From IMG/VR virus record IMGVR_UViG_3300048580_000268, positions 1 to 55,359 of that record: a stretch of DNA of 55,359 nucleotides. The stretch is one strand, 5' to 3'. The position numbers were made by a program, and so were the translations under genes. Numbering within the stretch: position 1 is the first letter of the stretch; every line of letters begins with the position of its first letter. The stretch is from a virus (lineage: Duplodnaviria; Caudoviricetes). The notes below the pieces were generated by a model. The model was not told the origin of the DNA, did not search any database, and saw nothing but the letters and a program-made list of their open reading frames with translations. Below are positions 1 to 55,359 of the stretch, piece by piece.

Positions 1-10
1 ATGAAGAGGG
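1..10. repeat. 10-nt terminal direct repeat ATGAAGAGGG (also 55350-55359); probably circular assembly overlap
   Basis: First 10 nt are identical to the last 10 nt. Confidence 0.8.
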
Positions 11-57: not shown

Positions 58-315
58 TTATTCTTCTACTTCTTTTGTAACCTTTATAAACATACCAGAT
101 ATGTTTTCAGAAACTATCTCATCAACAATCAGTTCTATAGCTTGTCTCTGATCTACTTCTGAAAGTTCTTCTGAAGAGAAGGTAAGTCTACCCAACAAAG
201 CACATGTGTTGTAGCCATGTGTTGTGTCATAAGTAAACCAGTTCCGGAAGTCATCGAAAGGATCATAAGGATTGTCTTTAGTTGTTACCATAGTTCTGAT
301 TACTTTATTACCCAT
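58..315 (-). CDS. Hypothetical protein, last gene of genome
   Basis: 85-aa ORF with GGAGGTG RBS; TTKDNPYDPFDDF motif. Confidence 0.75.
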   Translation of the reverse strand: MGNKVIRTMVTTKDNPYDPFDDFRNWFTYDTTHGYNTCALLGRLTFSSEELSEVDQRQAIELIVDEIVSENISGMFIKVTKEVEE

Positions 316-400: not shown

Positions 401-3061
401 CTAACCACCTTGTAGTGATCTATCTAGTGTTGATGTTGAGACTCCAAGGCGAGCTGCTACCTCAGCTCTAGTATAGTCACCAGTACTAAGTAAGGCTTGA
501 GCTTGCTTAGTCTTGGCATCTGTCATTAATAGTTTAGCTCTTGGTGTGGCTAGCTCTCTGACTTTATCCATGTCTGAGTTGTCTAGTATTGACCTGAGTT
601 TAGTATCACTTACTGCTCCAGCTTGAATAGCTTCCCATTCTTTAGGCTCAATAACTATCTTCTCTTTCTTAGCGCCTACTCTATTGCGGGCCTCTGTTAA
701 TGCCTGGCCGTTTAACTTCTTTTCAGAAGCTCGATCCATATGTGGATTTGCTTGCTTCTTCTGCTCCATGATTTCATTAGCTAGAATCTGAGCCCGTCTT
801 TCACGAGGGGCGTTTTCTTTTGCTATGCGGAGTTTAACATCTAGAGAAGAAACTTCTTTCTCGTAAACTTTCTTTGCAGAGGGGGATGAGATAGCGCCTG
901 GGGTATTAATCATTTCAAGTCTTGCTTTGTTAGCCATAGCTTTTAGTCTGTTTGAATGATTAGCATACAGTCTTTCAACTGGTGTACCAGAAGAAAGATC
1001 ATGAGCATCTTTTGCTAATTCAAGTTCCTCAAACTTCCTTAAGCTTAACTCTCCCGTTTTACTATTTACCCTACCTGTTGGCTCCCAAACAAGCTCGCCA
1101 GTCTTTCGGTCTATTGGCCCACCGTTTCTTGCCCTACGTGGTATGACCTCAGGAACCCTTATGTCACGGCCAGCCCTAGAGATAATAGTAGAAGCTCCAC
1201 CGCTACCATCAGCTTTACGTTGATACTTTTCTTGCAGGGCCCTAATGCGGTTATCTTTCTCTGACTGCTTATAATTCAATCTGTGTTTTTCAGCGTCAAT
1301 AACAACCATTGAATGGCGAACTGCTGCAGCTAACTCAGTCTCAGAAGCCCCATGCAAAGTCATGTCTGTGATTAGGTTAGAGATAACACCCATCTGCTTT
1401 TGTGTGTCGCCCATAATTTTCATACCTGGGTATTCTCGGTATGTTTCTCTGGGGTTAAAGTTCTTTAAACCTTCTAAAGCAGGCGTTGATCTTATTCTAC
1501 CTTTATCATTTGGTATAACTAATACCGTGTCTCCATCAAAGTCCGCTCCAGACAAACGTTCCGCAACTTGTGCGTTTATTGCCACTGCATCTTTAGCGCC
1601 TTTAAGAAGTTTATTAGCTTCCCTGTTCTTGTTGTTAACAACGAGAAGTGGGATTTCGAAAGTTCCTCCATGCGGGTAGCGTATTAGAGATACTTTTGTG
1701 CCGTTATCATAATTAGGGGCGTAGACTTCTGTCGGTGATAATGAATTAATAGGTAGTATCGCATACCATGCTTGACCAGGAAGACTTGCTGCCTTTAGGT
1801 GAACGGACGCGGCATCAGTTCCATCTGCAAACTCTTGAAGAAGTTTAGATTTAACTGTTGGATTAGTTAACGCCATGATTTCATCAAGTTCAGCTTGCCG
1901 CTGTTTATAGGTGGTGTCTAAACGCTCTCTAATAAGTTTTGGTTCTTGTTTAGAAAGAACTTGCGAGGCTATGGATTTTGACCATGCTCCCCAATTACCC
2001 TCTTCATTGACAATGTTTACTGCTGACTTGTTAACTTCTAACCCAGTTTTTGGATCTTTCTCTGTTATTTGTCTACGAATTACAGCGCCAAAAGGATTAT
2101 CTGGATCATCGGTTAACTTCTTTAAAGCATCAAGTTTGTTGTTAGTTCTTTCTTTATTAGTATTAAATTGTATATCGACTCCTGCAGGCAGATCATCTTT
2201 ATACATAGCCATACCTTTTAGGTAGTGCTCTGGACCTACTTTAATACGGACTTGAGCGTAACGAGATCCTCCAAGATCTAAATCTTTAACTCCTGGACGG
2301 ATATACATTACTCCATCTAAAGCCGACCCTCCATCAGGCCCATAGACGACGTCAATTCTTTTTGGATTGATTGATATCGGTGGAAGAATCCCTAATGTAG
2401 ACTTTCCAGTATCGTCTAAACGCTCGTTAAGCATCCGTATTTTATTTCGGTTTTTAACGGCGTCGCCCCAACTTGTACCAGGTTTCGCAAGCACTCTAAG
2501 TTTTGTGTCATAAACTGTTCCAAGCTGAGGAACCGGAACGTTTGAGTGAACTTCGTAACCTTCTGCTTTCAACATAGACAAAGCGACTTTTAAACGCTCT
2601 TCACTCACATTCAAGTACATTTCTGTACCTATACCGACATCCAACCAATCAACTTTATTAACCTGATCTCTTAAAATATTAGTTACTGTTTCAATAACAT
2701 CATTTTTCATTTTAGCGGCTGGAGCAAGAAGAGTTCTAAATGTTGATTCTGGAATCCCCATTTGCTCGGATGCTGCTTTATCTGACATCTGCTTGGTGTA
2801 TTTAAGATATTCAGCAGTTTTTATTCGTTCTTGTTGTCTCTCATTTTTAGCAATAGTCTTAAACGCCCGAAGATCTGCTACAGACATTTCAAAACTTTTT
2901 GCAATTTCAGCTTCTGTAAATTTATCTTCTTTTCTCAGCTTTTCAACCATATCAAGAAAGGTTCGACTATTCTTGACATTTCCACCAGATCCCCAAGGGT
3001 ATCGACCAGATTTTCTGGGAGTACCATAATGTTCAAGATAAACGTCTTCATCAATGTACAT
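401..3061 (-). CDS. Single-subunit two-barrel (DPBB) RNA polymerase-like protein, RDR/YonO type, with HTH domains
   Basis: RLSGADFDGD catalytic motif, RYPH, DG...QVR...KG, G.I.N...HS..ID..K; C-terminal HTH RAEVAARLGVSTSTL. Confidence 0.8.
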   Translation of the reverse strand: MYIDEDVYLEHYGTPRKSGRYPWGSGGNVKNSRTFLDMVEKLRKEDKFTEAEIAKSFEMSVADLRAFKTIAKNERQQERIKTAEYLKYTKQMSDKAASEQMGIPESTFRTLLAPAAKMKNDVIETVTNILRDQVNKVDWLDVGIGTEMYLNVSEERLKVALSMLKAEGYEVHSNVPVPQLGTVYDTKLRVLAKPGTSWGDAVKNRNKIRMLNERLDDTGKSTLGILPPISINPKRIDVVYGPDGGSALDGVMYIRPGVKDLDLGGSRYAQVRIKVGPEHYLKGMAMYKDDLPAGVDIQFNTNKERTNNKLDALKKLTDDPDNPFGAVIRRQITEKDPKTGLEVNKSAVNIVNEEGNWGAWSKSIASQVLSKQEPKLIRERLDTTYKQRQAELDEIMALTNPTVKSKLLQEFADGTDAASVHLKAASLPGQAWYAILPINSLSPTEVYAPNYDNGTKVSLIRYPHGGTFEIPLLVVNNKNREANKLLKGAKDAVAINAQVAERLSGADFDGDTVLVIPNDKGRIRSTPALEGLKNFNPRETYREYPGMKIMGDTQKQMGVISNLITDMTLHGASETELAAAVRHSMVVIDAEKHRLNYKQSEKDNRIRALQEKYQRKADGSGGASTIISRAGRDIRVPEVIPRRARNGGPIDRKTGELVWEPTGRVNSKTGELSLRKFEELELAKDAHDLSSGTPVERLYANHSNRLKAMANKARLEMINTPGAISSPSAKKVYEKEVSSLDVKLRIAKENAPRERRAQILANEIMEQKKQANPHMDRASEKKLNGQALTEARNRVGAKKEKIVIEPKEWEAIQAGAVSDTKLRSILDNSDMDKVRELATPRAKLLMTDAKTKQAQALLSTGDYTRAEVAARLGVSTSTLDRSLQGG

Positions 3062-3076
3062 TATTTACCCCCTTTT

Positions 3077-3637
3077 CTAAGAATAGTTGATTCGACGAAT
3101 TTCTTCAATATAACTGACGTGTTCCACAATAGTCCTCATGATGTTATCAATTGCTTCTGGAAAAGGTTCAAAAATGCGAATTTCATCTCTTTGATAGATT
3201 CTAAGTTCTATAGAAATGTCGTAAGGGCTTATCTCATACTCTAAACAAAATAGAGCAGCGTATACCTCAAGTTGTTTTTCGCTAGTTTTTGTAATGCCAG
3301 TTTTTAAATCATGAATTCTTAATTTGTTCCTCCGAAAACAAATAGCGTCTGCCGTGCCAAAACAATGTTCAGAGTAAAAAAGAGTTTGCTCAGAAGTCAT
3401 TTTGTAATTTATAGCGTCATTGACATAAGTTGCGAGCGCCATATTGGATCTCGACAATTTAACGCCTAACATTATAGCATTGTGAGCTAGTTTGTGTAAA
3501 TCGTCGCCGCGCCTAGCTGCTTGCGCAGAGCTGTATCTAGCTTCTAGTTTTTGTTCGTCATAATTTATCCAATGATAATTACTTGGACTTAGAAAGGCGT
3601 GTTTATCTTTTAAGTCCAAATGCTGATTGAAGCGCAT
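3077..3637 (-). CDS. PD-(D/E)XK Cas4-like exonuclease
   Basis: H.FLSPS, G...H, FGTAD, IHDLKTG, QLEVYA motifs. Confidence 0.75.
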   Translation of the reverse strand: MRFNQHLDLKDKHAFLSPSNYHWINYDEQKLEARYSSAQAARRGDDLHKLAHNAIMLGVKLSRSNMALATYVNDAINYKMTSEQTLFYSEHCFGTADAICFRRNKLRIHDLKTGITKTSEKQLEVYAALFCLEYEISPYDISIELRIYQRDEIRIFEPFPEAIDNIMRTIVEHVSYIEEIRRINYS

Positions 3638-3899
3638 CTAATACCTCTTCTTCATTTTCTGGGTAAATAAACGCCGCAAAAGACATTTGGTTAAGCGTCT
3701 TGACATAATACTCTTGATTTGGTTGGGCGTCTTCATTGATAGAACGCTTAACTTCAAGCATAGCCCATCTATCTTCATATAAAACAAGTAAGTCTGGTAT
3801 ACCTTGAATCTTAGACGGATCATTCTTGATAATGAGACAGCCGGGCAAGCAGTCATAGATCTTTTTAATAAGATCATACTGATATTTAGACTCTCGCAT
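3603..3899 (-). CDS. VRR-NUC-type PD-(D/E)XK nuclease/resolvase (start revised to MRESKY)
   Basis: GIPDL, LEVK, PNQ motifs; GGAGG RBS before ATG at 3899. Confidence 0.8.
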   Translation of the reverse strand: MRESKYQYDLIKKIYDCLPGCLIIKNDPSKIQGIPDLLVLYEDRWAMLEVKRSINEDAQPNQEYYVKTLNQMSFAAFIYPENEEEVLDALQSAFGLKR

Positions 3900-3945
3900 C
3901 GATTGTCCTCCAAAAAATGAAATAAATGTTTCTAATATACCTCTT

Positions 3946-3970
3946 CTCTCTATTACAATCGTTGTAAATA
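3946..3970 (-). promoter_or_regulatory. Variant copy of conserved promoter motif (TTTACAACGATTGTAATAGAGAG)
   Basis: Matches the TTTACAACG-nn-TATAAT-GAGA consensus with mismatches; upstream of the nuclease-RNAP genes. Confidence 0.55.
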
Positions 3971-3985
3971 CTAATACTGTATACG

Positions 3986-4507
3986 TCATGTAAAACAGTA
4001 GACACTTCTTGTCGGGTAGATGGCTACCCCTTGTAGGGCGGAGGTTAAAAGATCGTCAAACAACACACCTTCTTTGATACCGGCTTCTATTATCGAAGAA
4101 TAGACCTCTCCTGTTTGTAGGTTGAGTATTTGTTTTGAGTAATACTCAGATGGGTACACCGGTTTGAATTGCCTTGAATACTTCTGAGCAAACCAAGCAG
4201 GCCGCCAAGCCAAGTTACGATAATAAAGATTACTCTTATCGTTGTCTAACACAATAACTGTGTCTGGAATCGCCGACTTGTGGAACCCTGGTGAGATTGC
4301 TGGCTTAGCCACAAAGTGTTCGGCTACCAAAACTCTTACGGACCTGGTAAGTCTTACACCTCCTTCAGACAATGTGACCTTATAGTCACCTTGCATAGTT
4401 CTACTTTCAGACATGAGACGTTCTAGCCTTCTATTGTATACAGAGCCATAGTTATTTATGAGGTAATTACCCATACCTTTGATGGGTACCCACTCTTCAT
4501 CGGACAA
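3986..4507 (-). CDS. NUMOD4/HNH-type (degenerate) endonuclease-like protein
   Basis: EEWVPI..Y.INNYG.V, V..LVAEHF, DNDKSNL...NLAW; catalytic His residues appear lost. Confidence 0.65.
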   Translation of the reverse strand: MSDEEWVPIKGMGNYLINNYGSVYNRRLERLMSESRTMQGDYKVTLSEGGVRLTRSVRVLVAEHFVAKPAISPGFHKSAIPDTVIVLDNDKSNLYYRNLAWRPAWFAQKYSRQFKPVYPSEYYSKQILNLQTGEVYSSIIEAGIKEGVLFDDLLTSALQGVAIYPTRSVYCFT

Positions 4508-4794
4508 TTTTTACTCCTGCCTTGTAGGGGGGCGTCGTTTTTGACGAATTTCGGGGTTAAAAAAGTATTAGGGAAAATGTCATCCTTATACTACATACTA
4601 CACCAAGATCAGTCGTATAAGGTATACTAAATCTATAGAACTTTTTGACAAAAATATATGACGCGAACGACGCCGCTCAAAATAGTGCCGTTTAAACGAC
4701 TTTCGTGTAGTTTCATACACTTTTCTACTTATTTTAACAGCTTTTTCGTCCTGAAAAGGCGTCATATTTGAACACGTTTTTTCAAAGTTTCTCA

Positions 4795-6027
4795 TCAACA
4801 CTGCTCAAGTTCGATAGAATCAATCAATTTATCATAGAATTTTCGCTCATTGAAGCTTTTTTTTGAGGCCAATGATTCCTTAATTCCTCGATCGATCACC
4901 GAATTCGACGCCAAGATATAGTAGTAAAGGACGTCAAATGGGGTATTCAGCCGGTCAATTCTACCCTGACATTGCTCAAAGTTCTTGTACGAATATGTCA
5001 TTGAGTACATGATCATAGCGTTCGTATCTACACAATTCCAACCTTCTGCTCCCGATGTGTACTGCACAAGATACACCCATTTATCAGTGTCTGGGATAGG
5101 CTGCTTACGATGCCCATTCCACTCCGCGACGGTGATGTCATCAGCAAGCGTCCTGAGAATCTCAAGCTCGAAGTTGAAGGTGTAGAAGATGATTAGTTTG
5201 TCATGACACGTCATCAGTTTGCGAACCATCTCAAGACGAGACGGGTGTTCGTTCACAACGCGTCTCATCAGTCTAAAGACTTCTGCGATGTCGCGGACGG
5301 GAGCATCATCGTAAGGATTCCACCGACGAACAAACACGGTGTTAAACAGATTATGGTTGTACTCAACATCGATGTAGTTGATCACCCGCGTGGTATGTCG
5401 CTCGTATGGCATCTCTACAAGAACATCGTTACGCAGTACTTCGAGCCTCTGCTCGTTGAGGTAACCTTTGATCTTTGGGTATTTTGAGAAGGCTTCGTAT
5501 ACTACGTGCTGCATTTTGAAGTCAGTGATGTTCTTGTAAAACCCGTTGGCTATAAAGACGGGGGCATAATCCAACCACGAGTCTCCTGGGGTAGCGCTGA
5601 GAAGAATCCATCTGTTGTTTCTGGAAATTTTGAGGAATGACTTAACCCAAGCTCCATTTCCAACCAATCTCTGCTCGTCAAAGATGAAGAACCGATCTTG
5701 TAGACCCTCAAACTTACTAATGTTGTTCCAGGACTCCACGATGAGAGCGCCGTCTGAAGTATACTCTTGAGCTGTTGAAATTCCAAACCTTGCTGCTTCT
5801 GTTTCCCAATCCATACTATCACGCTTCTTGGCGGTTGTGATGACGACGATGTCACGAGGTGACTCCTTTTCTTTGTAGTACGATAGTACTGTCCGGGTTT
5901 TACCGCTCCCAACACCGCCGTGTAAGATTTTACCGTTTCCTAGATTTTTTACTGCTTCTTCCTGATGCGGTTGTAACTCATGCATAGTCAGTACGTACTC
6001 ATCTACTTGTAGGGCTAAGTTATTCAT
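4795..6027 (-). CDS. Superfamily 2 (SNF2-like) DNA helicase
   Basis: GVGSGKT Walker A, FDEQ, LSATP, Q..GRIDR. Confidence 0.9.
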   Translation of the reverse strand: MNNLALQVDEYVLTMHELQPHQEEAVKNLGNGKILHGGVGSGKTRTVLSYYKEKESPRDIVVITTAKKRDSMDWETEAARFGISTAQEYTSDGALIVESWNNISKFEGLQDRFFIFDEQRLVGNGAWVKSFLKISRNNRWILLSATPGDSWLDYAPVFIANGFYKNITDFKMQHVVYEAFSKYPKIKGYLNEQRLEVLRNDVLVEMPYERHTTRVINYIDVEYNHNLFNTVFVRRWNPYDDAPVRDIAEVFRLMRRVVNEHPSRLEMVRKLMTCHDKLIIFYTFNFELEILRTLADDITVAEWNGHRKQPIPDTDKWVYLVQYTSGAEGWNCVDTNAMIMYSMTYSYKNFEQCQGRIDRLNTPFDVLYYYILASNSVIDRGIKESLASKKSFNERKFYDKLIDSIELEQC

Positions 6028-6364: not shown

Positions 6365-6388
6365 CTCTCATTATAAGCGCTGTAAAAA
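6365..6388 (-). promoter_or_regulatory. Conserved promoter motif
   Basis: TTTTTACAGCGCTTATAATGAGAG. Confidence 0.85.
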
Positions 6389-6601
6389 CTACGGTTTCAC
6401 GATGACCCGAGTCATTACTGCGTCATAGTTACCATCGGCAAGAATGATCCCCACCATTACAGTCGGTACAATCTCGAATGGAATATCAACGCCGTGGTAG
6501 ATGAAGCTATGATGTGTTTCTGAGTCTACCTCAGGCTTCACGCCTCCGTTGATAGCCGCGATGAGCGGAATGGTGTTCTCTTCAATCGGGATGATAATCA
6601 T
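6389..6601 (-). CDS. Hypothetical protein
   Basis: 70-aa ORF coupled to the upstream gene. Confidence 0.65.
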   Translation of the reverse strand: MIIIPIEENTIPLIAAINGGVKPEVDSETHHSFIYHGVDIPFEIVPTVMVGIILADGNYDAVMTRVIVKP

Positions 6602-6807
6602 CAGTTCTTCTTTGCTTCGAAGTAGTTCTTCAGTATGTCTGAAACGGTAGTGTCAGTAATCTTGCTGGCGGTTTCGGCCTTCTTCTCCATGAACTTAGCG
6701 TGGGAGAGAATTCCTGCCGCGTAAGCAGAGCCAAAACCAAAGACGGTCAAAGCTCCTAAGACATAACCTGCTGCGAACTTCATTACTTTCCTCCTGTTGA
6801 TTGACAA
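6601..6807 (-). CDS. Small membrane protein
   Basis: 68-aa ORF with one hydrophobic segment. Confidence 0.65.
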   Translation of the reverse strand: MSINRRKVMKFAAGYVLGALTVFGFGSAYAAGILSHAKFMEKKAETASKITDTTVSDILKNYFEAKKN

Positions 6808-6810
6808 ATT

Positions 6811-6848
6811 AAAAAAGGAAAAGCACCGTGATTGGTGCTCGTCCTTTT
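6811..6848 (-). terminator. Intrinsic terminator (type A)
   Basis: AGCACC-loop-GGTGCT hairpin flanked by AAGG/CCTT and T-tract. Confidence 0.75.
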
Positions 6849-6870
6849 GAGGTTGTTACCTCGGGTCTTC

Positions 6871-7020
6871 TCAGATGTCAGCGGTCAGCAGCCGCCGCAC
6901 ACCCTTCCGCACCGACGCATCGTGGTACCCGGCGATCCCCGCGTTGACAGCGTTGATGGCACCGAGTCCGGCGAAGACGGTGACGATGGTGTACAGGACG
7001 ACCTTGATGGCCTTCTTCAT
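6871..7020 (-). CDS. Cassette gene 8, 49 aa membrane protein MKKAIKVVLYTIVTVFAGLG...
   Basis: Hand-translated (below ORF-track cutoff); AAAGGAG RBS, GC-rich third codon positions. Confidence 0.8.
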   Translation of the reverse strand: MKKAIKVVLYTIVTVFAGLGAINAVNAGIAGYHDASVRKGVRRLLTADI

Positions 7021-7044
7021 GGAAGTCTCCTTTGTAGGTGGTTA

Positions 7045-7077
7045 TCTCATTATAAGCGTTGTAATTTTTGTTGACAA
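7045..7077 (-). promoter_or_regulatory. Conserved promoter motif, TTGTCA-17-TATAAT
   Basis: TTGTCAACAAAAATTACAACGCTTATAATGAGA. Confidence 0.85.
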
Positions 7078-7110
7078 GAAGAAAGCCCTTGTCAGGGGCT
7101 CGCTTCTTTT
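7078..7110 (-). terminator. Intrinsic terminator (type B)
   Basis: AGCCCCTGACAAGGGCT hairpin plus pyrimidine tract. Confidence 0.7.
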
Positions 7111-7123
7111 GATTACCTTTCAG

Positions 7124-7300
7124 TCAGTTCTTCATCCGACGCTTGACCTCCTTCTCCCAGGTCCGGGAGTTGCGCTCGTTGGTCGCCACCTCCACCGTCT
7201 TCAGGATCGTTCCTGCGATCCCGGCGACGACGGTGATGACGATGTACGGCTGCTCCTCCCAGACCTGCTTGGTCTTGGTCTTGAGCTGGTGGATGTTCAT
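7124..7300 (-). CDS. Cassette gene 7, 58 aa membrane protein MNIHQLK...
   Basis: GGAGG RBS; start revised; one TM-like segment. Confidence 0.8.
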   Translation of the reverse strand: MNIHQLKTKTKQVWEEQPYIVITVVAGIAGTILKTVEVATNERNSRTWEKEVKRRMKN

Positions 7301-7317
7301 GATTCCTCCTGTTTGTT

Positions 7318-7351
7318 CTCTCATTATAAGAGCTGTAAATAATGCGGACAA
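7318..7351 (-). promoter_or_regulatory. Conserved promoter motif, TTGTCC-17-TATAAT
   Basis: TTGTCCGCATTATTTACAGCTCTTATAATGAGAG. Confidence 0.85.
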
Positions 7352-7397
7352 AAAAGAGAAATCCTTGTAGGTTTTACGCTACAAGGACTATCTCTTT
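7351..7397 (-). terminator. Intrinsic terminator (type C)
   Basis: TCCTTGTAG-loop-CTACAAGGA hairpin plus T-tract. Confidence 0.75.
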
Positions 7398-7407
7398 CGA
7401 GACTGCT

Positions 7408-7542
7408 CTAGCTGAACAGTCGTCCGATCACGTTGGCGGCCCCCCGGATCACCCTGCGCATGAACAGCCCGGTCATCGTGATGATGATCAGGCAGCCCAA
7501 CAGGATGGTGCCGAGGAACGCGTTGACGGTGGATGCGAACAT
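7408..7542 (-). CDS. Cassette gene 6, 44 aa membrane protein MFASTVNAFLGTILLG...
   Basis: Hand-translated; AAAGGAG RBS; hydrophobic. Confidence 0.8.
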   Translation of the reverse strand: MFASTVNAFLGTILLGCLIIITMTGLFMRRVIRGAANVIGRLFS

Positions 7543-7563
7543 GGTGCTCCTTTAGTAGGTTGT

Positions 7564-7592
7564 CTCTCATTATAGGAGCTGTAATTTTTGTG
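7564..7592 (-). promoter_or_regulatory. Conserved promoter motif (no -35 match)
   Basis: CACAAAAATTACAGCTCCTATAATGAGAG. Confidence 0.8.
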
Positions 7593-7784
7593 CTATCCTT
7601 CGTCTAAATCTTCTGTAAGAAAATTAAACATGTGGTCCACGCGTTCTTGATACAATCCATCTATCAATCCTTGAAGAACACCTTCTAGCTCGTCGAAATT
7701 TCTCTGTAGGATTCGTGCTCTGAATTCAACATAGGCGATTGCTGCTACACCAATACCTATAGGAAAGACAAATTTATTAAACAT
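7593..7784 (-). CDS. Small membrane protein
   Basis: 63-aa ORF, AAAGGAG RBS, N-terminal TM segment; no own promoter motif. Confidence 0.7.
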   Translation of the reverse strand: MFNKFVFPIGIGVAAIAYVEFRARILQRNFDELEGVLQGLIDGLYQERVDHMFNFLTEDLDEG

Positions 7785-7798
7785 AGTAACTCCTTTTC

Positions 7799-7836
7799 AA
7801 AAAGGAAAAGCACCGCAATAGTGATGCTAATCCTTT
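7799..7836 (-). terminator. Intrinsic terminator (type A)
   Basis: Related in sequence to 6811-6848. Confidence 0.65.
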
Positions 7837-7852
7837 AACCTGTTAAGGTCAG

Positions 7853-8020
7853 TTAGTTGAGGCTGTTGGCGTAGAACGTCCTCAGACCTTCGAGTTCTTC
7901 GTGCGCTTCGTCAAGCTCGTCCAACACCTGGATGTGCTCCTGGTAGAGGTGGTACAAGTTCCACGAAAGCACCGCGAGCGCGATGATCTGGATAAGTGCA
8001 ATCAACAGTACGAACAACAT
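7853..8020 (-). CDS. Cassette gene 5, 55 aa TM plus coiled-coil protein MLFVLLIALIQ...
   Basis: Hand-translated; AAGGAG RBS. Confidence 0.8.
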   Translation of the reverse strand: MLFVLLIALIQIIALAVLSWNLYHLYQEHIQVLDELDEAHEELEGLRTFYANSLN

Positions 8021-8041
8021 TTCTGTCTCCTTCTGTGGTTA

Positions 8042-8074
8042 TCTCATTATACGCGCTGTAAATAATGTGGACAA
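8042..8074 (-). promoter_or_regulatory. Conserved promoter motif, TTGTCC-17-TATAAT
   Basis: TTGTCCACATTATTTACAGCGCGTATAATGAGA. Confidence 0.85.
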
Positions 8075-8111
8075 AAATAAGAAGCCTTGTCAAGACTAGA
8101 CTTCTTATTTT
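8073..8111 (-). terminator. Intrinsic terminator
   Basis: AAAATAAGAAG...CTTCTTATTTT inverted repeat. Confidence 0.7.
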
Positions 8112-8141
8112 GAGGTTACTACCTCGTGGGGTGTTATGGGT

Positions 8142-8285
8142 TCACTTCTTCGCCTTGGTGGCGAGGAGAGCGGCCAGACCAGTGAGCAGCATGGTGACCG
8201 CCCGCGTACGGGCCTTCTCCTTGCGGCGCTGTTCTGATCGCTGTCGGTTCGCTTCGACCAAGTCGAAGAAACGTGTTCCAGCCAT
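8142..8285 (-). CDS. Cassette gene 4, 47 aa basic protein with C-terminal hydrophobic segment MAGTRFFDL...
   Basis: Hand-translated; AAGGAG RBS. Confidence 0.8.
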   Translation of the reverse strand: MAGTRFFDLVEANRQRSEQRRKEKARTRAVTMLLTGLAALLATKAKK

Positions 8286-8307
8286 GTCAACTCCTTGTTG
8301 TAGGTTT

Positions 8308-8341
8308 CTCTCATTATAAGCGTTGTAAATAATGCGGACAA
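8308..8341 (-). promoter_or_regulatory. Conserved promoter motif, TTGTCC-17-TATAAT
   Basis: TTGTCCGCATTATTTACAACGCTTATAATGAGAG. Confidence 0.85.
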
Positions 8342-8371
8342 GAAGAAAGCCCTTGTCGGGGGCTCCCTTCT
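8341..8371 (-). terminator. Intrinsic terminator (type B)
   Basis: Near-identical to 7078-7110. Confidence 0.7.
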
Positions 8372-8380
8372 ATTGATAAC

Positions 8381-8548
8381 TCAGGTGTTGATGTGTCGGT
8401 CGTTGCCGGCCAAACCAGTCTGCTCATCCTTCAAGGCCTCGATCGTGCGCGTCATCACCAACATCTTCTGATGCTGGCGATAGATCACATAAGCGAGGAC
8501 CATGACGATGGTTCCCATGGTGTAGCTGTAAAGCGTCCAAAACAACAT
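8381..8548 (-). CDS. Cassette gene 3, 55 aa TM plus coiled-coil protein MLFWTLYS...
   Basis: AAAGGAG RBS; start revised; leader GGAGACAGAAATGTTGTT shared with 7853-8020. Confidence 0.8.
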   Translation of the reverse strand: MLFWTLYSYTMGTIVMVLAYVIYRQHQKMLVMTRTIEALKDEQTGLAGNDRHINT

Positions 8549-8565
8549 TTCTGTCTCCTTTGTTT

Positions 8566-8599
8566 CTCTCATTATAGGAGCTGTAAAAAATGTGGACAA
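8566..8599 (-). promoter_or_regulatory. Conserved promoter motif, TTGTCC-17-TATAAT
   Basis: TTGTCCACATTTTTTACAGCTCCTATAATGAGAG. Confidence 0.85.
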
Positions 8600-8632
8600 A
8601 AAGGTTAGGGGTGTTGCCACCCCTTTCCTTTT
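8598..8632 (-). terminator. Intrinsic terminator
   Basis: AGGGGTGGCAACACCCCT hairpin (GCAA tetraloop) plus T-tract. Confidence 0.75.
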
Positions 8633-8838
8633 CAGTTGTTGAGCTCTTCCCAGTGCTCGGGGCTGTAGAACTCCATCGGGTCGATGTCACGCTCGCCCAA
8701 GAACTCGTAGAACTGCCTGATGTTGCGCTGCTGGATGGCGATCGCCGTCATAGCGATGGCCCCCCAGACGTACGCAGACTTCTTCTCTTCGTAGTGGTTC
8801 TTGAGCTTGGTAACACCAGCCTTGATCTTGTCCTTCAT
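8632..8838 (-). CDS. Cassette gene 2, 68 aa protein MKDKIKAG...
   Basis: GGAGG RBS; start revised; short hydrophobic segment. Confidence 0.8.
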   Translation of the reverse strand: MKDKIKAGVTKLKNHYEEKKSAYVWGAIAMTAIAIQQRNIRQFYEFLGERDIDPMEFYSPEHWEELNN

Positions 8839-8862
8839 GGTTCCTCCGTTGGTAGGTGGTTG

Positions 8863-8895
8863 TCTCATTATAAGCGTTGTAAATAATGTGGACAA
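8863..8895 (-). promoter_or_regulatory. Conserved promoter motif, TTGTCC-17-TATAAT
   Basis: TTGTCCACATTATTTACAACGCTTATAATGAGA. Confidence 0.85.
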
Positions 8896-8937
8896 AAAAG
8901 AGAAGCCCCGTAGTTTTTACGCTACGAGACTTCTCTC
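8894..8937 (-). terminator. Intrinsic terminator (type C)
   Basis: Related to 7351-7397 (similar GCGTAAAA-containing loop). Confidence 0.75.
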
Positions 8938-8943
8938 CGTGAG

Positions 8944-9183
8944 TTACTTCGCCTTCTTGGCGGCGTCGTCGAGGATCTTCTCGTTGATCTTCTCGATCTT
9001 CTTCTCCCGGCGGTCCGCGACGCGGTTGCCGATGGCGGTCTTCGCCTTGTCCCAGTTGCGCGCGGCGACGGTACCCAGCAGGGCACCAGCGCCGAACACG
9101 ACTGCGGTGGCGAGGAACGCACCGGTCTCCGTGTCTTCGGTCTCGTCGTTGAAGTCGATCTCGTCGTTCACGATCTCGTCCAT
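8944..9183 (-). CDS. Cassette gene 1, 79 aa acidic-TM-basic protein
   Basis: GGAGG RBS; strongly GC-rich third codon positions. Confidence 0.8.
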   Translation of the reverse strand: MDEIVNDEIDFNDETEDTETGAFLATAVVFGAGALLGTVAARNWDKAKTAIGNRVADRREKKIEKINEKILDDAAKKAK

Positions 9184-9211
9184 TTCAATTCCTCCGTTTG
9201 GTAGGGTGTTT

Positions 9212-9241
9212 CTCTCATTATAAGAGCTGTAATTTTTGCGG
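9212..9241 (-). promoter_or_regulatory. Conserved promoter motif (no -35 match)
   Basis: CCGCAAAAATTACAGCTCTTATAATGAGAG. Confidence 0.85.
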
Positions 9242-9245
9242 TTTA

Positions 9246-9422
9246 TTACTCTTCTAAGTATGGATAAACAATGAAACTTACAAGCCTTTGGTTTGGGCCA
9301 GCTTTGAACATGGGATTCATAACCAAAGCATAGGGATGCTTTTCGTATAAATTGAGCAGCTCATCTTCAAGATATACAAAACCGACAGTTTCACTATCAA
9401 TTAGTATTGGTACGCGTTTCAT
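9246..9422 (-). CDS. Hypothetical protein (MKRVPIL...), start overlaps tRNA CCA end
   Basis: ORF trimmed to the ATG at the tRNA-Leu 3' end. Confidence 0.5.
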   Translation of the reverse strand: MKRVPILIDSETVGFVYLEDELLNLYEKHPYALVMNPMFKAGPNQRLVSFIVYPYLEE

Positions 9423-9511
9423 GGTGCCCCCAGTGGGATTCGAACCCACACGACTTTTTAAAGTCCTTCGGGTTTAAGCCGAATGCGTCTGCCTGATTTC
9501 GCCATGGGGGC
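9422..9511 (-). tRNA. tRNA-Leu(TAA)
   Basis: GCCCCCA/TGGGGGC acceptor stem, anticodon loop CTTAAAC, long variable arm, GTTCGAATC, encoded CCA. Confidence 0.92.
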
Positions 9512-9517
9512 TGGTGG

Positions 9518-9868
9518 CTACACGTCTGTCAAGTCCTTCCAAGAAGTTGTCCTGAACAGTTCTCTACAGAGACCGTCGGACTCGTAGAAATCGACAAACC
9601 CAACCCAGTCATCAGGGAAAATCATCTCGTGTTCTTGATCGAGACTATCGCGGTCCTGGGCCCAGTTGACGTGCTCGTGAACGACGATCTCTGAATTGGT
9701 CATTGCTTCTACGACCCACAGGTCACCATGCTCGAACATGATCTCGAAGTAAATCGGGTACCAAGTACCATCGATGATCTTCGGGAAACCCTCAACTTGA
9801 ATATTGACTGCTGGAATAATCACACCATTAATCTTAACGCAATTATTGAGATCTTCCAAGACGTCCAT
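9518..9868 (-). CDS. Hypothetical acidic protein
   Basis: 116-aa ORF with AAGGAG RBS. Confidence 0.7.
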   Translation of the reverse strand: MDVLEDLNNCVKINGVIIPAVNIQVEGFPKIIDGTWYPIYFEIMFEHGDLWVVEAMTNSEIVVHEHVNWAQDRDSLDQEHEMIFPDDWVGFVDFYESDGLCRELFRTTSWKDLTDV

Positions 9869-9881
9869 TAATTACTCCTTA

Positions 9882-10118
9882 TTAATACGGATCGGCGTAC
9901 TTACCATGCCAAGGATCATTACACGGCTCTAGGTGTTTACCACCCAGATCATTATACATAATCAAGCGTCGAGTCTTTTGCCGGTCACTCTGGCAGGTTG
10001 GGCACGGATAAACTTCTTTATCCTTAGACTCCGCCCAAGACAACCAAACTAAAAGGCCTAAAACAAAAAGAAAGAGGCCCCAAAAATACCAAGTACCGAA
10101 CCACTCTAAAACTGTCAT
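9882..10118 (-). CDS. Membrane protein with CxxC...CxxxxH putative zinc site (start revised to MTVLEWF)
   Basis: The longer ORF overlaps a tRNA; TM helix, CPTC, CNDPWH. Confidence 0.65.
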   Translation of the reverse strand: MTVLEWFGTWYFWGLFLFVLGLLVWLSWAESKDKEVYPCPTCQSDRQKTRRLIMYNDLGGKHLEPCNDPWHGKYADPY

Positions 10119-10138
10119 TATCTGTCTTTTTCCTTTTG

Positions 10139-10211
10139 TGGGCTGGGAGGGAATTGAACCCCCGACCGAGTTATTATGAGTAACCTGCTCTAACCACTGA
10201 GCTACCAGCCC
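10139..10211 (-). tRNA. tRNA with CAT anticodon, probably Ile2 (lysidine type), alternatively elongator Met
   Basis: GGGCTGG/CCAGCCC acceptor stem, TAGCTCAGTGGTTAGAGCA D-arm, CTCATAA loop, GTTCAATTC. Confidence 0.9.
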
Positions 10212-10218
10212 TAGAGCT

Positions 10219-10437
10219 TTATTCAACTACAATCGTGATTCCAAGAATTTTGTTATTGGCGAGATCAACAGCAGCTTCAGGAGGAAGTTGCAGCAAATAT
10301 GGGTCTTCTGATATCTCCTCAAATTGCTGAGATGTGATTCGAATCGTTTCGTTTTGAGCGATAAAGGTTTCTCCGTCCAAAAGACTAGTTGTTTTCAGAT
10401 CATGAACTGCGTCTATAAGATCTTTGAAGTTGGTCAT
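10219..10437 (-). CDS. Hypothetical protein
   Basis: 72-aa ORF with AAGGA RBS. Confidence 0.6.
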   Translation of the reverse strand: MTNFKDLIDAVHDLKTTSLLDGETFIAQNETIRITSQQFEEISEDPYLLQLPPEAAVDLANNKILGITIVVE

Positions 10438-10627
10438 TTTTGTCCTTAGTTGTGTTAAATCGCCGAGGCTTTACGATGTTCGACCTCTTGACAGAAAATA
10501 CTGCCGCGTAGTCGTCTCGAAACCAAACATGAGTCTCGTCCTTGTCTATGACTTCAACAAGACCTTCGTCATGATCTCGGCCAAGATGCTCGTGGTAATA
10601 GGTCAACTCTACAAATTCTGGAACCAT
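10400..10627 (-). CDS. Hypothetical protein
   Basis: 75-aa ORF with GGAGG RBS. Confidence 0.6.
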   Translation of the reverse strand: MVPEFVELTYYHEHLGRDHDEGLVEVIDKDETHVWFRDDYAAVFSVKRSNIVKPRRFNTTKDKNDQLQRSYRRSS

Positions 10628-10659
10628 GTTTCCTCCTAATTAAAAATGGCTAATGAAAA

Positions 10660-10736
10660 TGCCGGACACTAAGAACTATGCACGCAGTCGTCAATGAGTG
10701 GATAGTTTGTGGTTGGATAACCCTTAGTGCCCAGCA
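10660..10736 (-). ncRNA. Putative structured RNA immediately 3' of tRNA-Lys
   Basis: 13-bp stem GCUGGGCACUAAG/CUUAGUGUCCGGC enclosing two hairpins. Confidence 0.5.
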
Positions 10737-10739
10737 CAG

Positions 10740-10813
10740 TGCACCCCCTGGGACTTGAACCCAGAACCAACGGATTAAAAGTCCGACGCTCTAACCAATT
10801 GAGCTAGAGGTGC
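10740..10813 (-). tRNA. tRNA-Lys(TTT)
   Basis: GCACCTC/GGGGTGC acceptor stem, CTTTTAA loop, GTTCAAGTC. Confidence 0.92.
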
Positions 10814-11550
10814 GTGTACCCAGCCGGATCGCCAAAAACGGCCTTACTGTTTTGACCCCCAGGATCTTATCAGTGCACTGTCTCTCACGTAAACCCTTAA
10901 TTTTCTAAGGGCGGCTCGATGACAGTCTCCTCCGGGTCAGAGGAGATGAGAAAAGGAGCAGTTTTGACCAGGATGCTCGGCCTGGGAGAGACGCCCTACA
11001 GAGGCGAAATTAAGGCAACCACGGACATATAGTGTCATCATCGCAACGAGAAACCAAGATTGCGAGGTACATGCACAGCGCTAAAGGAGAGGAAGGGACT
11101 GTGCTACGTGGTCTTTACCGACACAAGGCCTTAGCGAAATTGCTGTAGAGGCTCCTGACTAAGCCAGGAATTAAGCGTTATTGGCGCGCCTAATCTCAAA
11201 TGAGCACCTCTACAGCGTCCTTAGCCTGTTTGTGTTGTACCCAACCTATCTACCCATTTGGGCGACTCGGTCCACAAACAAAACGCGCACCTGGTACGGG
11301 TGGCGTCACACTAAGCGGTTTTTTGTTTACCTGAACCACTGATGATCAGTCAATGGCGTTCTGTGTCACCTTCACAGTGTACGGGCCTCTCGGCCCCGCG
11401 CTGAGCCTAAACTCTATTTAACGTCGCTCAGCCGACGATCTATTAATATAAACGAACTATCGCCTCAGGGCGGTCCGACCAGGATATGGGCGAGCCTGCG
11501 GACTGTACAACTCTCTGGCGAGGTGAGGTTGTAGCGCCCTGGACGAATTG
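10814..11550 (-). ncRNA. Putative large multi-domain structured ncRNA or ncRNA cluster
   Basis: No ORF of 60 aa or more; many nested stems, junctions and two H-type pseudoknots. Confidence 0.65.
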
Positions 11551-11559
11551 ATAAAAATA

Positions 11560-11672
11560 AAAAATGAGAAGCTGGGGCTAACTAGCCAACGAAACTAGTT
11601 ATTAGCGATCTTTCTTCATCGCGCCAGGTAGGTGGGGTTTGCTCCCACTCATTACGTGTCTTACCTTCTTCT
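11560..11672 (-). ncRNA. Putative ~105-nt small RNA (promoter to T-tract, no ORF)
   Basis: Directly follows the promoter motif; closing stem plus three internal stems; ends in TTTTTTATTTTT. Confidence 0.6.
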
Positions 11673-11697
11673 CATTATAAGCCCTGTAATTTTTGCG
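11670..11697 (-). promoter_or_regulatory. Conserved promoter motif driving the ncRNA region
   Basis: CCGCAAAAATTACAGGGCTTATAATGAGA. Confidence 0.85.
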
Positions 11698-20715: not shown

Positions 20716-20820
20716 AAAAAAATAAAAAAGAAGCATTTATGGAGGAGCTCGCCCTGGTTGGGAGAGCCCCTCCAACTGTTCCTTTTGGTAAGTTGTAATT
20801 TGGAAAAGCTTACGCTCTCC
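20716..20820 (-). ncRNA. Putative ~100-nt small RNA (promoter to T-tract)
   Basis: Follows the promoter motif; GUAAG/CUUAC stem, GGAGGGGCUC/GAGCUCCUCC hairpin, TTTTTTATTTTTT end. Confidence 0.55.
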
Positions 20821-20845
20821 ATTATAGGACCTGTAATTCTTGCGG
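20817..20845 (-). promoter_or_regulatory. Conserved promoter motif
   Basis: CCGCAAGAATTACAGGTCCTATAATGGAG. Confidence 0.8.
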
Positions 20846-20906
20846 ATGGCCAATTTGAAACCGTTTGCCCAAAAATCCCCCCCGGGGAAAAAATAAAAAT
20901 CGTTGT

Positions 20907-20967
20907 AAAAATGAGAAACACAGAAGCCGTGCAAGACTGTTAAGTCTCACACAGCTTCTGTGTTTTT
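20907..20967 (-). terminator. Long hairpin/terminator
   Basis: AAACACAGAAGC...GCTTCTGTGTTT inverted repeat. Confidence 0.7.
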
Positions 20968-20983
20968 ACCTCCGTAGTAGGGT

Positions 20984-21274
20984 CTAGTTCTTCGGTCGAA
21001 TGAACAGCGGCATGGCCTTGCTCGTGATCACGTGCTTCTCTTCGTATGCAACGATGATCAGGATGCCCAGAAGGTTACCCAGGACGACCATCACCGTATC
21101 CGGACTGATCCGTCGAGGCCGTGTATTGGCCTTCAACGCATTCAGTCTGTCAAGGTGGTTGATCAATCCCTGGTACTCTTCGGACTCCGGACCAAACATC
21201 TGCATGTCGTCGACAACACGTTCGATCAAGATGTCAAGGTACTTGGCGTCGTTTCGTTCGAAAACTCCGAACAT
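20984..21274 (-). CDS. Stand-alone cassette gene, 96 aa membrane protein (start revised to MFGVFER)
   Basis: Own promoter motif and terminator; C-terminal TM segment followed by YEEKHVITSKA. Confidence 0.8.
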   Translation of the reverse strand: MFGVFERNDAKYLDILIERVVDDMQMFGPESEEYQGLINHLDRLNALKANTRPRRISPDTVMVVLGNLLGILIIVAYEEKHVITSKAMPLFIRPKN

Positions 21275-21294
21275 AGTTTGCCTTTCTGTAGGTA

Positions 21295-21322
21295 TCTCAT
21301 TATAAGCGCTGTATTTACTGCG
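21295..21322 (-). promoter_or_regulatory. Conserved promoter motif
   Basis: CCGCAGTAAATACAGCGCTTATAATGAGA. Confidence 0.8.
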
Positions 21323-54355: not shown

Positions 54356-55138
54356 CTAGGCTTCTCCATCACGAATTTTAGCTAGAGCAATACAGGTCCA
54401 CCACTTCGTTGAATCCCCAAAAATGCCTGCGGCGTCATTCACAGGAAGTTTCATCAACCGACATTTGTTCTGCCACTGAGAAACCGCTTTTGTTGTAGAA
54501 GGACCGTACGACCCGTCAGTAACTAGTTTGGAGTTTGTGATGAGGTTGAGCGCTTCCTGAATAGATTTAACATCTTCTTTGTTTGTGTTGTCTAACGGCA
54601 CTCTGGTTTTTACAGTAGAGATTTTGTTAAACACTAAACCTGCCATGTACCTACGAAAAGCGACCCAGTCAAACTTGGGCTTTGTTTCGATGTAGCCTAA
54701 AATACCAGACCGACGATAAAGTTCCCAAACTCCACCTCCAGTTCTTGAGCCACCAGAATTAGTGTTACCCTCGATGGTCCAGATACGCCCATCGTTTAAC
54801 TTGGCCTTGACAATACCAATGTGGTCCGGCCGATTAGTAAACTGAAAAATGATCATGTCCCCAGGCTTTGGGTTGTATGACCCCCTTGGCCGCCACTGAC
54901 CAGTCTTCTTAGCATGAGCAACCATGGTTGGAACGTAAGCGCATCCCTTAGAAGTCTGTAGAGGAGGAAAAGGACTTCCAGCTTTCCAGAATAACCATGA
55001 CATAAAGATGCAGCACCAAGCAACACCATTCCAACCGAACCAAACGCCATACTTTTGGCGGTTACTATTCCTTGGGTGTTCGACCGTGCCGACTTCTCTT
55101 TGCGCAATATCAAGAATTCCGTTTCCTACTTCAAACAT
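54356..55138 (-). CDS. Endolysin: CHAP amidase plus peptidoglycan-binding domain
   Basis: WCCIFMSW, PGD.IIF, HIGIV, TIEGNT; IQ.ALN, DG.YGP.T..AV..WQ. Confidence 0.88.
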   Translation of the reverse strand: MFEVGNGILDIAQREVGTVEHPRNSNRQKYGVWFGWNGVAWCCIFMSWLFWKAGSPFPPLQTSKGCAYVPTMVAHAKKTGQWRPRGSYNPKPGDMIIFQFTNRPDHIGIVKAKLNDGRIWTIEGNTNSGGSRTGGGVWELYRRSGILGYIETKPKFDWVAFRRYMAGLVFNKISTVKTRVPLDNTNKEDVKSIQEALNLITNSKLVTDGSYGPSTTKAVSQWQNKCRLMKLPVNDAAGIFGDSTKWWTCIALAKIRDGEA

Positions 55139-55283: not shown

Positions 55284-55359
55284 AAGTTCCTCCTGGTCTA
55301 AAAACATTGTGGGAAAAGTCCCCGCGGGGCAAAATATGAGGGGCGGGCGATGAAGAGGG

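Follow-up and report, generated by a model that had tools for sequence, protein, structure and literature searches.

The IMG/VR virus record IMGVR_UViG_3300048580_000268 (Duplodnaviria; Caudoviricetes), analyzed here over its full length of 55,359 bp (hereafter, the window), represents a freshwater siphovirus with a double-stranded DNA (dsDNA) genome of 45% GC and a CheckV completeness of 92%. Close to one end it carries a gene whose product had been read in an earlier note, made from the sequence alone, as a compact single-subunit RNA polymerase (RNAP) of the two-barrel class. This reading is upheld by sequence profiles, motif conservation and two confident structural models, and we regard the observation as confirmed and the predicted identity of the protein as supported: a two-barrel RNAP with a core of approximately 500 residues and helix-turn-helix (HTH) domains at both ends.

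Every motif string listed in the earlier note is present, a single time each and in the order given there: LDGVMY (residues 248–253, nt 2303–2320), AQVR (269–272), LKGMA (281–285), IRYPH (460–464, nt 1670–1684), RLSGADFDGD (502–511, nt 1529–1558), MGVISN (557–562) and HSMVVIDAEK (583–592). All of them are invariant or nearly so in two conservation alignments, the first comprising 69 sequences (42–72% identical to the query) and the second, an independent one, covering the polymerase core in 73 sequences (72 IMG/VR loci and the window). Invariant positions of the 69-sequence alignment include G250, Q270, R272, K282, G283, R461, P463, H464, the loop G505-A506-D507-F508-D509-G510-D511, G558, N562, D589 and K592, with D249 conserved in at least 90% of sequences. 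The 73-sequence alignment reproduces the same set with the exception of K592 (at least 90%), and the metal loop D507-F-D509-G-D511 is invariant in both (69/69 and 73/73). Because nearly identical invariants emerge from the two alignments, the ordered motif set, which is far beyond chance, is on sequence grounds a conserved active-site signature. Moreover, the metal- and substrate-binding residues are invariant among sequences only 42–72% identical to the query and, therefore, appear to be the signature of a working active site. As judged by this conservation, the family is under strong selection, and the polymerase is predicted to be very probably catalytically competent. At the level of the aligned sequences, the invariance of R461, P463, R272 and K282, together with D249 (at least 90%), would fit the pattern of Ruprich-Robert and Thuriaux (2010, NAR, PMC2919709), with R-x-P preceding the metal loop and one acidic and two basic residues located in the beta-like barrel; according to these authors, eight invariant residues are common to the YonO-like families and to every two-barrel RNAP.

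An additional conserved element is the peptide HYG..R.SGRYPWGSG near the N-terminus, in which G13, S18, G19, R20 and G24 are invariant in 69/69 sequences. It falls within residues 1–31, which are modeled as disordered (predicted local distance difference test, pLDDT, <50). Six-frame searches of the window and 80 related loci revealed no copy of this peptide outside the polymerase N-terminus (one spurious match spans stop codons), and its interpretation as a shared targeting signal was rejected owing to this restriction.

The full-length AlphaFold2 model, built from the 69-row alignment (pLDDT 87.8; predicted template-modeling score, pTM, 0.79), comprises, past the disordered residues, a helical HTH region (35–137), a small alpha/beta domain (139–203), a six-strand block (236–353), a long helical connector (366–420), a second six-strand block (431–517) ending in the DFDGD loop, a helix pair (553–593), a beta-hairpin domain (633–678), long helices (694–795) and a C-terminal HTH region (806–884). 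Its comparison with 350,542 PDB chains by Foldseek yielded 102 matches. Six of them have E ≤ 0.001, and each of the six is a two-barrel RNAP made of one chain, namely QDE-1 in three entries (best 3.8e-9), P74-26 gp62 (9.8e-8) and RDR2 of maize and Arabidopsis; beta-prime and Rpb1 subunits were below significance. Global TM-scores of the full-length model were low (about 0.3) and, therefore, the core (residues 205–700) was also folded alone (pLDDT 85.1). Among 650 Foldseek matches of the core model, 24 have E ≤ 0.001, and all of those listed are QDE-1, P23-45 gp64, P74-26 gp62 or RDR2. The best scores were obtained for QDE-1 of two fungi (E down to 7.5e-12, query-normalized TM-score, TMq, up to 0.47), P23-45 gp64 (2.0e-9) and P74-26 gp62 (2.9e-9), followed by Rpb1, crAss gp66 (6VR4; E = 2.1e-3, probability 0.84, TMq 0.26), the non-virion RNAP of AR9 and beta-prime. 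BFVD contributed eight further matches at E ≤ 0.001, and all four with an informative name are RNA-dependent RNA polymerases (RdRPs). A structure comparison of this kind, which the earlier note had proposed as a check, thus puts QDE-1 at the top and crAss gp66 at a weaker rank, with two barrels present in the model; these form a core with the fold of known superfamily members, and the DxDGD loop is located in the beta-prime-like barrel.

A closer look at these structural relatives reveals both common and distinct features. QDE-1 and RDR2 (PDB 2J7N, 7Y7P, 7W82, 7EU1) align over approximately 500 columns (core TMq 0.35–0.47) with the same order of barrels and motifs; unlike the window protein, they are cellular enzymes, with a sequence identity to it of just 11–16%, and the Pfam RdRP model stays below threshold for the window polymerase. 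The second-best matches, P23-45 gp64 and P74-26 gp62 (PDB 8F72, 8F5M; target-normalized TM-score 0.34–0.35), are likewise phage-encoded and single-chain, and are described as promoter-specific DNA-dependent non-virion RNAPs of Thermus phages; they differ in size (about 590 aa), in the lack of HTH ends in the solved chains, and in acting on early/middle genes, and at the sequence level only a non-significant match of the window protein to a Thermus phage RNAP (8H2N) was obtained.

By sequence, the protein belongs to PHROG 4291 ("RNA-dependent RNA polymerase"), which it matches at E = 0 and 1203 bits over residues 4–884 (profile positions 7–906 of 909). The YonO family profile (PHROG 8308), which YonO itself, taken from the SPBc2 record, matches over its whole length at E = 0, gave only a local match at residues 440–519 (25.5 bits, E = 8.6e-6) and no full-length one. 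Since this match is confined to the catalytic barrel, it is only through this barrel that the two are tied at the profile level, and the window polymerase is placed by its profile matches outside the YonO family proper, in a separate and much larger family. The likeness to YonO claimed in the earlier note therefore holds with respect to the two-barrel class and the local profile match, and does not extend to family membership. Both are phage-encoded single chains of comparable length (839 aa for YonO vs. 886 aa) with a DxDGD loop, and YonO, described as a DNA-dependent RNAP that transcribes SPbeta late genes (PMC5467207), offers a functional model of a late-gene RNAP.

The HTH-like segments anticipated at both ends are judged to be real from domain profiles: Sigma70_r4_2 (PF08281) matches residues 86–113 at 27.9 bits (cut-off 25.7), from which promoter specificity is a prediction, and HTH_23 (PF13384) matches residues 856–881 at 24.3 bits, 0.3 bits short of its cut-off of 24.6. 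HTH domains flanking the core at both termini are also described for the PHROG 4291 family (10.1101/842583). The expectation that simple searches would label the protein as an HTH protein was borne out as well. Indeed, the only Pfam model above threshold is of HTH type, 107 of its best 120 database relatives carry only HTH-type Pfam domains (13 carry none), and the phage records listed are mostly annotated as "helix-turn-helix DNA-binding domain protein", with several as "RNA-dependent RNA polymerase". Sequence searches of the PDB, with the single protein or a family profile, returned just HTH proteins, designed repeat proteins and chance matches, including a non-significant one (E = 0.45) of the catalytic loop to 8H2N, the tape-measure–RNAP protein of P23-45.

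The family is broadly represented. A search of 5.8 billion proteins yielded at least 7,999 homologues of the polymerase, the closest being metagenomic and 72% identical, and HMMER, run without filters on 1.84 billion cluster representatives, yielded 1,993 clusters (50% identity) at E ≤ 1e-3, including 856 at E ≤ 1e-30. Homologues were detected by tblastn in 250 phage records, none of which reaches 60% identity and which comprise phages of Arthrobacter (95), Gordonia (55), Streptomyces (54) and Lactococcus (13), gut siphoviruses and others, including Faecalibacterium phages; a near-identity DNA search for the window among phage records found nothing. This distribution agrees with that reported by Koert et al. 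(2021, bioRxiv 10.1101/842583), who treated it as a signature gene shared by an actinophage supercluster and Lactococcus/Faecalibacterium phages, noted its HTH domains at both ends and DxDGD loop, reported an HHpred match of the family alignment to PF05183 (P = 95.68% over 286 columns), and concluded that it "could potentially have RNA polymerase activity". An even earlier analysis (PMC2919709) assigned proteins of phages SPbeta, 0305phi8-36 and 1706 to three of five distantly related YonO-like families. The novelty implied by the earlier note was thus overrated, the same inference and the "phage 1706" family being already in print. The window protein matches this "phage 1706"/actinophage family over its full length; 39 of the 40 listed records (Arthrobacter, Streptomyces, Gordonia, Lactococcus, gut siphoviruses) are 40–54% identical to it with a coverage of 91% or more, and it shares with the family, as far as this is described, the HTH-core-HTH layout, the position at a genome end and a companion primase-polymerase. 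It differs in its divergence (at most 54.3% identity to any isolated phage) and in its origin from a freshwater phage of 45% GC.

Five singleton clusters (P0176, P0169, P0271, P0272, P0273) contain long forms of the polymerase core (1655–2020 aa). One of them (P0176, 1789 aa) has a phage portal domain (PF04860, 2.9e-29) N-terminal to the core and neither of the HTH ends, and another (P0272) carries a piece of DUF5906; these could be either true fusions or artefacts of assembly or gene calling. Their use as support for a virion role was rejected given five singletons vs. at least 7,999 homologues of standard length, and given that the extra parts differ from one form to the next.

Table 1. Location of the polymerase gene, its parts and other features of the window (ORF, open reading frame; DPBB, double-psi beta-barrel; nt, nucleotide positions)
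Feature	Position	Strand	Basis or remark
Two-barrel single-subunit RNA polymerase homologue (PHROG 4291), whole gene	401..3061	-	886 aa, ATG start
N-terminal peptide HYG..R.SGRYPWGSG (residues 11-26)	2984..3031	-	invariant positions; disordered in model
N-terminal helical/HTH region (residues 35-137), including sigma-70 region-4-like HTH 86-113 (nt 2723-2806)	2651..2959	-	Pfam PF08281 and model helices
First beta-barrel, beta-subunit-like DPBB (residues ~236-353); D249-G250, Q270, R272, K282-G283	2003..2356	-	model strands, invariants, Foldseek
Second beta-barrel, beta-prime-like DPBB (residues ~431-517); R461-x-P463-H464, metal-binding loop GADFDGD (D507, D509, D511; nt 1529-1543)	1511..1771	-	invariants, PHROG 8308 local match, weak Pfam RdRP match
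Putative bridge-helix-like helix pair past the catalytic loop (residues 553-593); invariant G558, N562, D589, K592	1283..1405	-	conservation and model; named from its position
C-terminal HTH region (residues 806-884; HTH_23 at 856-881)	410..646	-	Pfam, PDB profile matches to HTH proteins at 838-880, model helices
85-aa ORF (PHROG 4303), directly downstream of polymerase	58..315	-	synteny, 76/80 loci
Conserved block 5' of polymerase: SNF2-type helicase, HNH endonuclease, small endonuclease, Cas4-like exonuclease	3077..6027	-	gene annotation and synteny
Twelve promoter-like repeats of TTGTCC-N17-TATAATGAGA type, ~40 nt	6366-11687 and 20817-21312	-	repeat and pattern search
Fused primase-helicase-DNA polymerase, 1244 aa	12559-16293	-	PHROG 4210 (E=0, full length), primase PHROGs, DUF5906 at residues 178-290
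tRNA-Leu (TAA)	9422-9511	-
tRNA-Met (CAT)	10138-10211	-
tRNA-Lys (TTT)	10739-10813	-
Pistol self-cleaving ribozyme (Rfam RF02679)	11377-11437	-	46.6 bits (gathering score 34.5), E=2.1e-5
Major tail protein gene, 643 aa	30612-32543	-	C-terminal part matches PHROG 2645
Major tail protein gene, 774 aa	32555-34879	-	C-terminal part matches PHROG 2645
884-aa ORF	45300-47954	-	62% GC
BD-FAE/alpha-beta-hydrolase	48406-50364	-	upstream of terminase
CHAP + PG_binding_1 endolysin	54356-55138	-	upstream of terminase

All genes of the window are on the minus strand. In the order of transcription, an endolysin with CHAP and peptidoglycan-binding domains, an alpha/beta hydrolase and genes of unknown function are followed by terminase, portal and a fused protease-capsid gene, a pair of paralogous major tail genes, the tape measure gene and those of minor tail proteins, a run of unknowns, the 1244-aa primase-polymerase, small genes spanning approximately 6 kb, with three tRNAs among them, and, finally, the helicase, HNH, small endonuclease, Cas4-like exonuclease, polymerase and 85-aa ORF. 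The immediate neighborhood of the polymerase is strongly conserved among 80 related IMG/VR loci (exonuclease in 78, endonuclease in 77, 85-aa ORF in 76), and among the 18 contigs that extend more than 2.5 kb beyond it, 13 have terminase (usually portal and capsid as well) following on the same strand after 2–8 kb of variable genes. Given this conservation and this order, the polymerase closes the series of conserved genes that precedes the late module. The 85-aa ORF product has its own invariant residues (T12, D14, N15, P16, P19, W26, D30, R43); the prediction of its complex with the polymerase (score 0.01, mark 0.32) weighs neither way. The ends of the window (1–10 and 55350–55359) share a 10-nt direct overlap, located beside a G/C-rich hairpin-like stretch (12–45), and this overlap allows the map to be closed into a circle, which suggests a complete cos-type (cohesive-end) or circularizable genome, the record being classed as linear and 92% complete.

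The most informative signals with respect to transcription are the twelve promoter-like repeats, all on the coding strand (at 6383, 7062, 7336, 7582, 8059, 8326, 8584, 8880, 9230, 11687, 20834 and 21312). The pattern ACAGSKCYTATAATGAGA captures all 12 against 0.29 matches expected, and the copies are confined to two intervals, ten at 6.4–11.7 kb and two at 20.8–21.3 kb. Each copy has a perfect TATAAT and a 17-nt spacer, with a -35-like TTGTCC/TTGTCA in 6/12; six copies match the sigma-70/sigma-A consensus at 10–11 of 12 positions, and the string TACA-N2-C-N-TATAATG, including positions outside both hexamers, is invariant in 12/12. A ribosome-binding site and start codon follow within approximately 30 nt in all but two cases (11687 and 20834), and many copies are preceded by a terminator-like hairpin of the previous small gene, resulting in modular promoter-gene-terminator cassettes that constitute repeat families D13 and D14. 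The last cassette is parted from the helicase-to-polymerase block by a further terminator-like hairpin (6097–6079). No strong host-type repeat is found in the 33-kb lysis/structural block (55.3 to 22.2 kb), whose genes are tightly packed and never more than 103 nt apart, and generic sigma-70-like sites at 40–55 kb occur at chance level (18 vs. 17.6 expected). A second promoter candidate, TAGTNNTATAAGGATG, upstream of the helicase and HNH genes, was rejected (6 matches vs. 4.45 expected, two of them good copies). Some of the 37 related loci of at least 12 kb carry words of the TATAATG(G)AGA or TTGnnCCAnTTTT type; these resemble the universal sigma-A consensus and, thus, a cross-locus comparison cannot separate promoters of the host from those of a phage RNAP. 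The simplest reading of the distribution within the window is that transcription of the early cassettes falls to host RNAP, and that of the rest to something else, plausibly the window polymerase.

Taken together, these data lead us to favor, with a probability of roughly 55–60%, the view of the window polymerase as a DNA-dependent RNAP of the non-virion kind that serves genes devoid of host-type promoters, its HTH ends giving DNA or promoter binding. The enzyme would be made by host RNAP after infection and would then transcribe phage genes lacking host-type promoters (middle/late), potentially those of the replication block and especially of the 33-kb lysis/structural block, the next one after the polymerase gene on the circular map; template or promoter binding would be supplied by the terminal HTH domains instead of a separate sigma factor. 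DNA-dependent RNA synthesis is the most likely activity because the characterized phage homologues are described as DNA-dependent, QDE-1 has been crystallized on DNA templates (by the titles of PDB entries 7y7r and 7y7t), and the protein has HTH domains and is encoded by a dsDNA siphovirus; the "RNA-dependent" label in PHROGs and GenBank would, therefore, be a name transferred by homology. Among characterized systems, P23-45 gp96 is described as transcribing pre-early and gp64 early/middle phage genes, both as DNA-dependent enzymes (PMC10770324).

Several observations weigh against this view. The top structural matches, QDE-1 and RDR2, are RNA-dependent enzymes, and global TM-scores are below 0.5 throughout. 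Pfam RdRP (PF05183) reaches just 12.7 bits at residues 498–536, around the DFDGD loop (cut-off 23.8, E = 0.05), a score that points to remote homology rather than membership; an hhalign comparison of the family alignment with the single YonO sequence gave no signal, with a probability of 2.6%. The polymerase gene is located within a replication/recombination module rather than beside known transcription factors, and it lies behind the 6097–6079 hairpin and lacks its own strong promoter of the host type. The search of the window for a phage-specific promoter motif yielded none, and host RNAP could read the late block via weak promoters or read-through. Finally, the main texts of the literature searched (supplements apart) contain no biochemical or genetic test of any family member.

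A bolder version of the favored scenario, which we consider tentative and clearly less probable than its general form, is a self-sufficient single chain of approximately 100 kDa, in which the core together with the sigma-region-4-like and other HTH domains would read phage promoters directly, independently of a separate initiation factor, and alone drive the 33-kb late block. If true, no known promoter-specific relative of the cellular RNA polymerases would be simpler than this family of approximately 2,000 clusters, which would also be a natural polymerase-"sigma" fusion in cis.

Virion-packaged RNAPs injected into the host, such as N4 vRNAP, crAss gp66 and P23-45 gp96, provide a precedent for a different role of the window polymerase, that of an injected enzyme transcribing the early genes, with the twelve repeats as its own promoters rather than those of the host. 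The P23-45 virion RNAP is described as fused to the tape-measure protein and paired with the non-virion gp64 (PMC10770324). Such a role could account for the conservation of the repeat past its hexamers, in 12/12 copies compared with 6/12 for the -35-like hexamer, for the N-terminal peptide, invariant yet disordered, as a packaging or docking signal, and for the portal domain found ahead of the core, without HTH ends, in the 1789-aa relative P0176. Nevertheless, the repeat is a near-perfect sigma-70/sigma-A consensus with 17-nt spacing, as in strong early host promoters; its additional conservation can stem from duplication of whole cassettes (D13, D14); the gene resides in the replication module, far from structural genes; and the long fused forms are very rare relative to those of standard length. 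We, therefore, consider this role improbable, with the N-terminal peptide and the long forms keeping a virion-associated or partner-dependent variant alive at a low probability.

Similarly unlikely in our estimation is a role in replication or recombination, such as the synthesis of RNA primers or of origin-activating R-loop transcripts. The tight synteny with helicase, HNH, endonuclease and Cas4-like exonuclease genes would agree with it, as would the apparent co-inheritance with the primase-polymerase, which shows the same host distribution in phage records. The latter, however, already provides a dedicated archaeo-eukaryotic primase (AEP) fused to a DNA polymerase: relatives of the 1244-aa protein are annotated as "DNA primase/polymerase", and its counterpart in phage 1706, gp55, is described as superfamily 3 (SF3) helicase + AEP primase + PolB (PMC4889955). 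As the phage has its own primase, this role is not needed for the two-barrel enzyme. In addition, the phage members of this fold with a described function are transcription enzymes, and the two predicted HTH sets suggest sequence-specific binding of duplex DNA.

The chances of a true RdRP acting on phage or host transcripts appear slimmer still. The ranking of QDE-1 and RDR2 in the structure searches, the name used by PHROG 4291 and several GenBank records, the weak Pfam RdRP match and the 95.68% HHpred match to PF05183 (10.1101/842583) are all in its favor; set against these are the transfer of that name by homology, a dsDNA genome without an obvious RNA template, the DNA-binding HTH domains of the protein, the DNA dependence of the phage relatives described to date and the use of DNA templates by QDE-1 as well. 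The least probable option by far, a DNA-binding regulator with an inactive relic of the core, would suit the HTH annotation of most listed records and the HTH-only Pfam result, and is hardly compatible with metal- and substrate-binding residues that are all invariant at 42–72% identity to the query.

Among living enzymes, the single-chain two-barrel RNAPs come closest to a model of the ancestor from which all cellular RNA polymerases descend. To our knowledge, few of them have been assayed so far (YonO, crAss gp66, P23-45 gp64 and gp96, and the QDE-1/RDR enzymes), and we know of no terminal HTH domains in the eukaryotic QDE-1/RDR2 enzymes. The PHROG 4291-type family is far more abundant than the assayed enzymes (1,993 clusters, 250 phage records) and, among the single-chain two-barrel RNAPs considered, it is the only one seen with HTH domains at both ends. 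The window polymerase is, then, a divergent freshwater member of a large family of HTH-flanked single-chain RNAPs already predicted in print, for which both public labels, "HTH DNA-binding protein" and "RNA-dependent RNA polymerase", are probably misleading. To a specialist the homology will be unsurprising; it is the abundance, the built-in HTH domains and the experimental access that make the family a good target. Many members come from the easily grown hosts of SEA-PHAGES and, thus, template, promoter and timing are directly testable. The contribution of the window is a clean picture, with host-type promoters in the early region only, a primase encoded separately, and the polymerase gene immediately ahead of the late block, which sharpens the hypothesis.

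Public sequencing data provide some information on occurrence and expression. In ten lake-water metagenome runs, four of them possibly from the source sample, 50% or more of the words sampled from the first 10 kb are present. Contigs of freshwater metatranscriptomes, from a strain 90–99% similar, include pieces of the polymerase gene in 3/3 libraries, and the deepest of these contigs (138, 69.4, 41.8) fall in the promoter-cassette region, highest at 7.7–8.8 kb, where the DNA run is flat; some stretches of the first 20 kb are not covered by the RNA-library contigs. As contig depth cannot rank genes, and DNA carry-over is possible in RNA libraries, this constitutes a weak hint of expression. Two RNA libraries yielded contigs of the related strain in which a 269-nt stretch within 8356–8626 gives way to 22 other letters, and the third has a matching loose end. 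This stretch corresponds to one promoter cassette and, therefore, cassettes vary in presence between strains.

Other features of the genome were observed along the way. The two adjacent paralogous major tail protein genes are related by DNA repeats 1943 nt apart with 71–74% identity, and the endolysin and hydrolase genes are located upstream of terminase rather than after the tail genes. The 884-aa ORF forms a GC-rich island in the 45% GC genome, with internal repeats 243 nt apart; no match was found for it in PHROG, Pfam or PDB sequences, and TRF (Tandem Repeats Finder) detected just a 9-nt repeat nearby. It may encode a receptor-binding or fibre protein acquired from elsewhere. The early small-gene region contains the three tRNA genes and a Pistol ribozyme, the latter within a 1.07-kb stretch free of ORFs, with the promoter copy at 11687 on its upstream side and tRNA-Lys on its downstream side.

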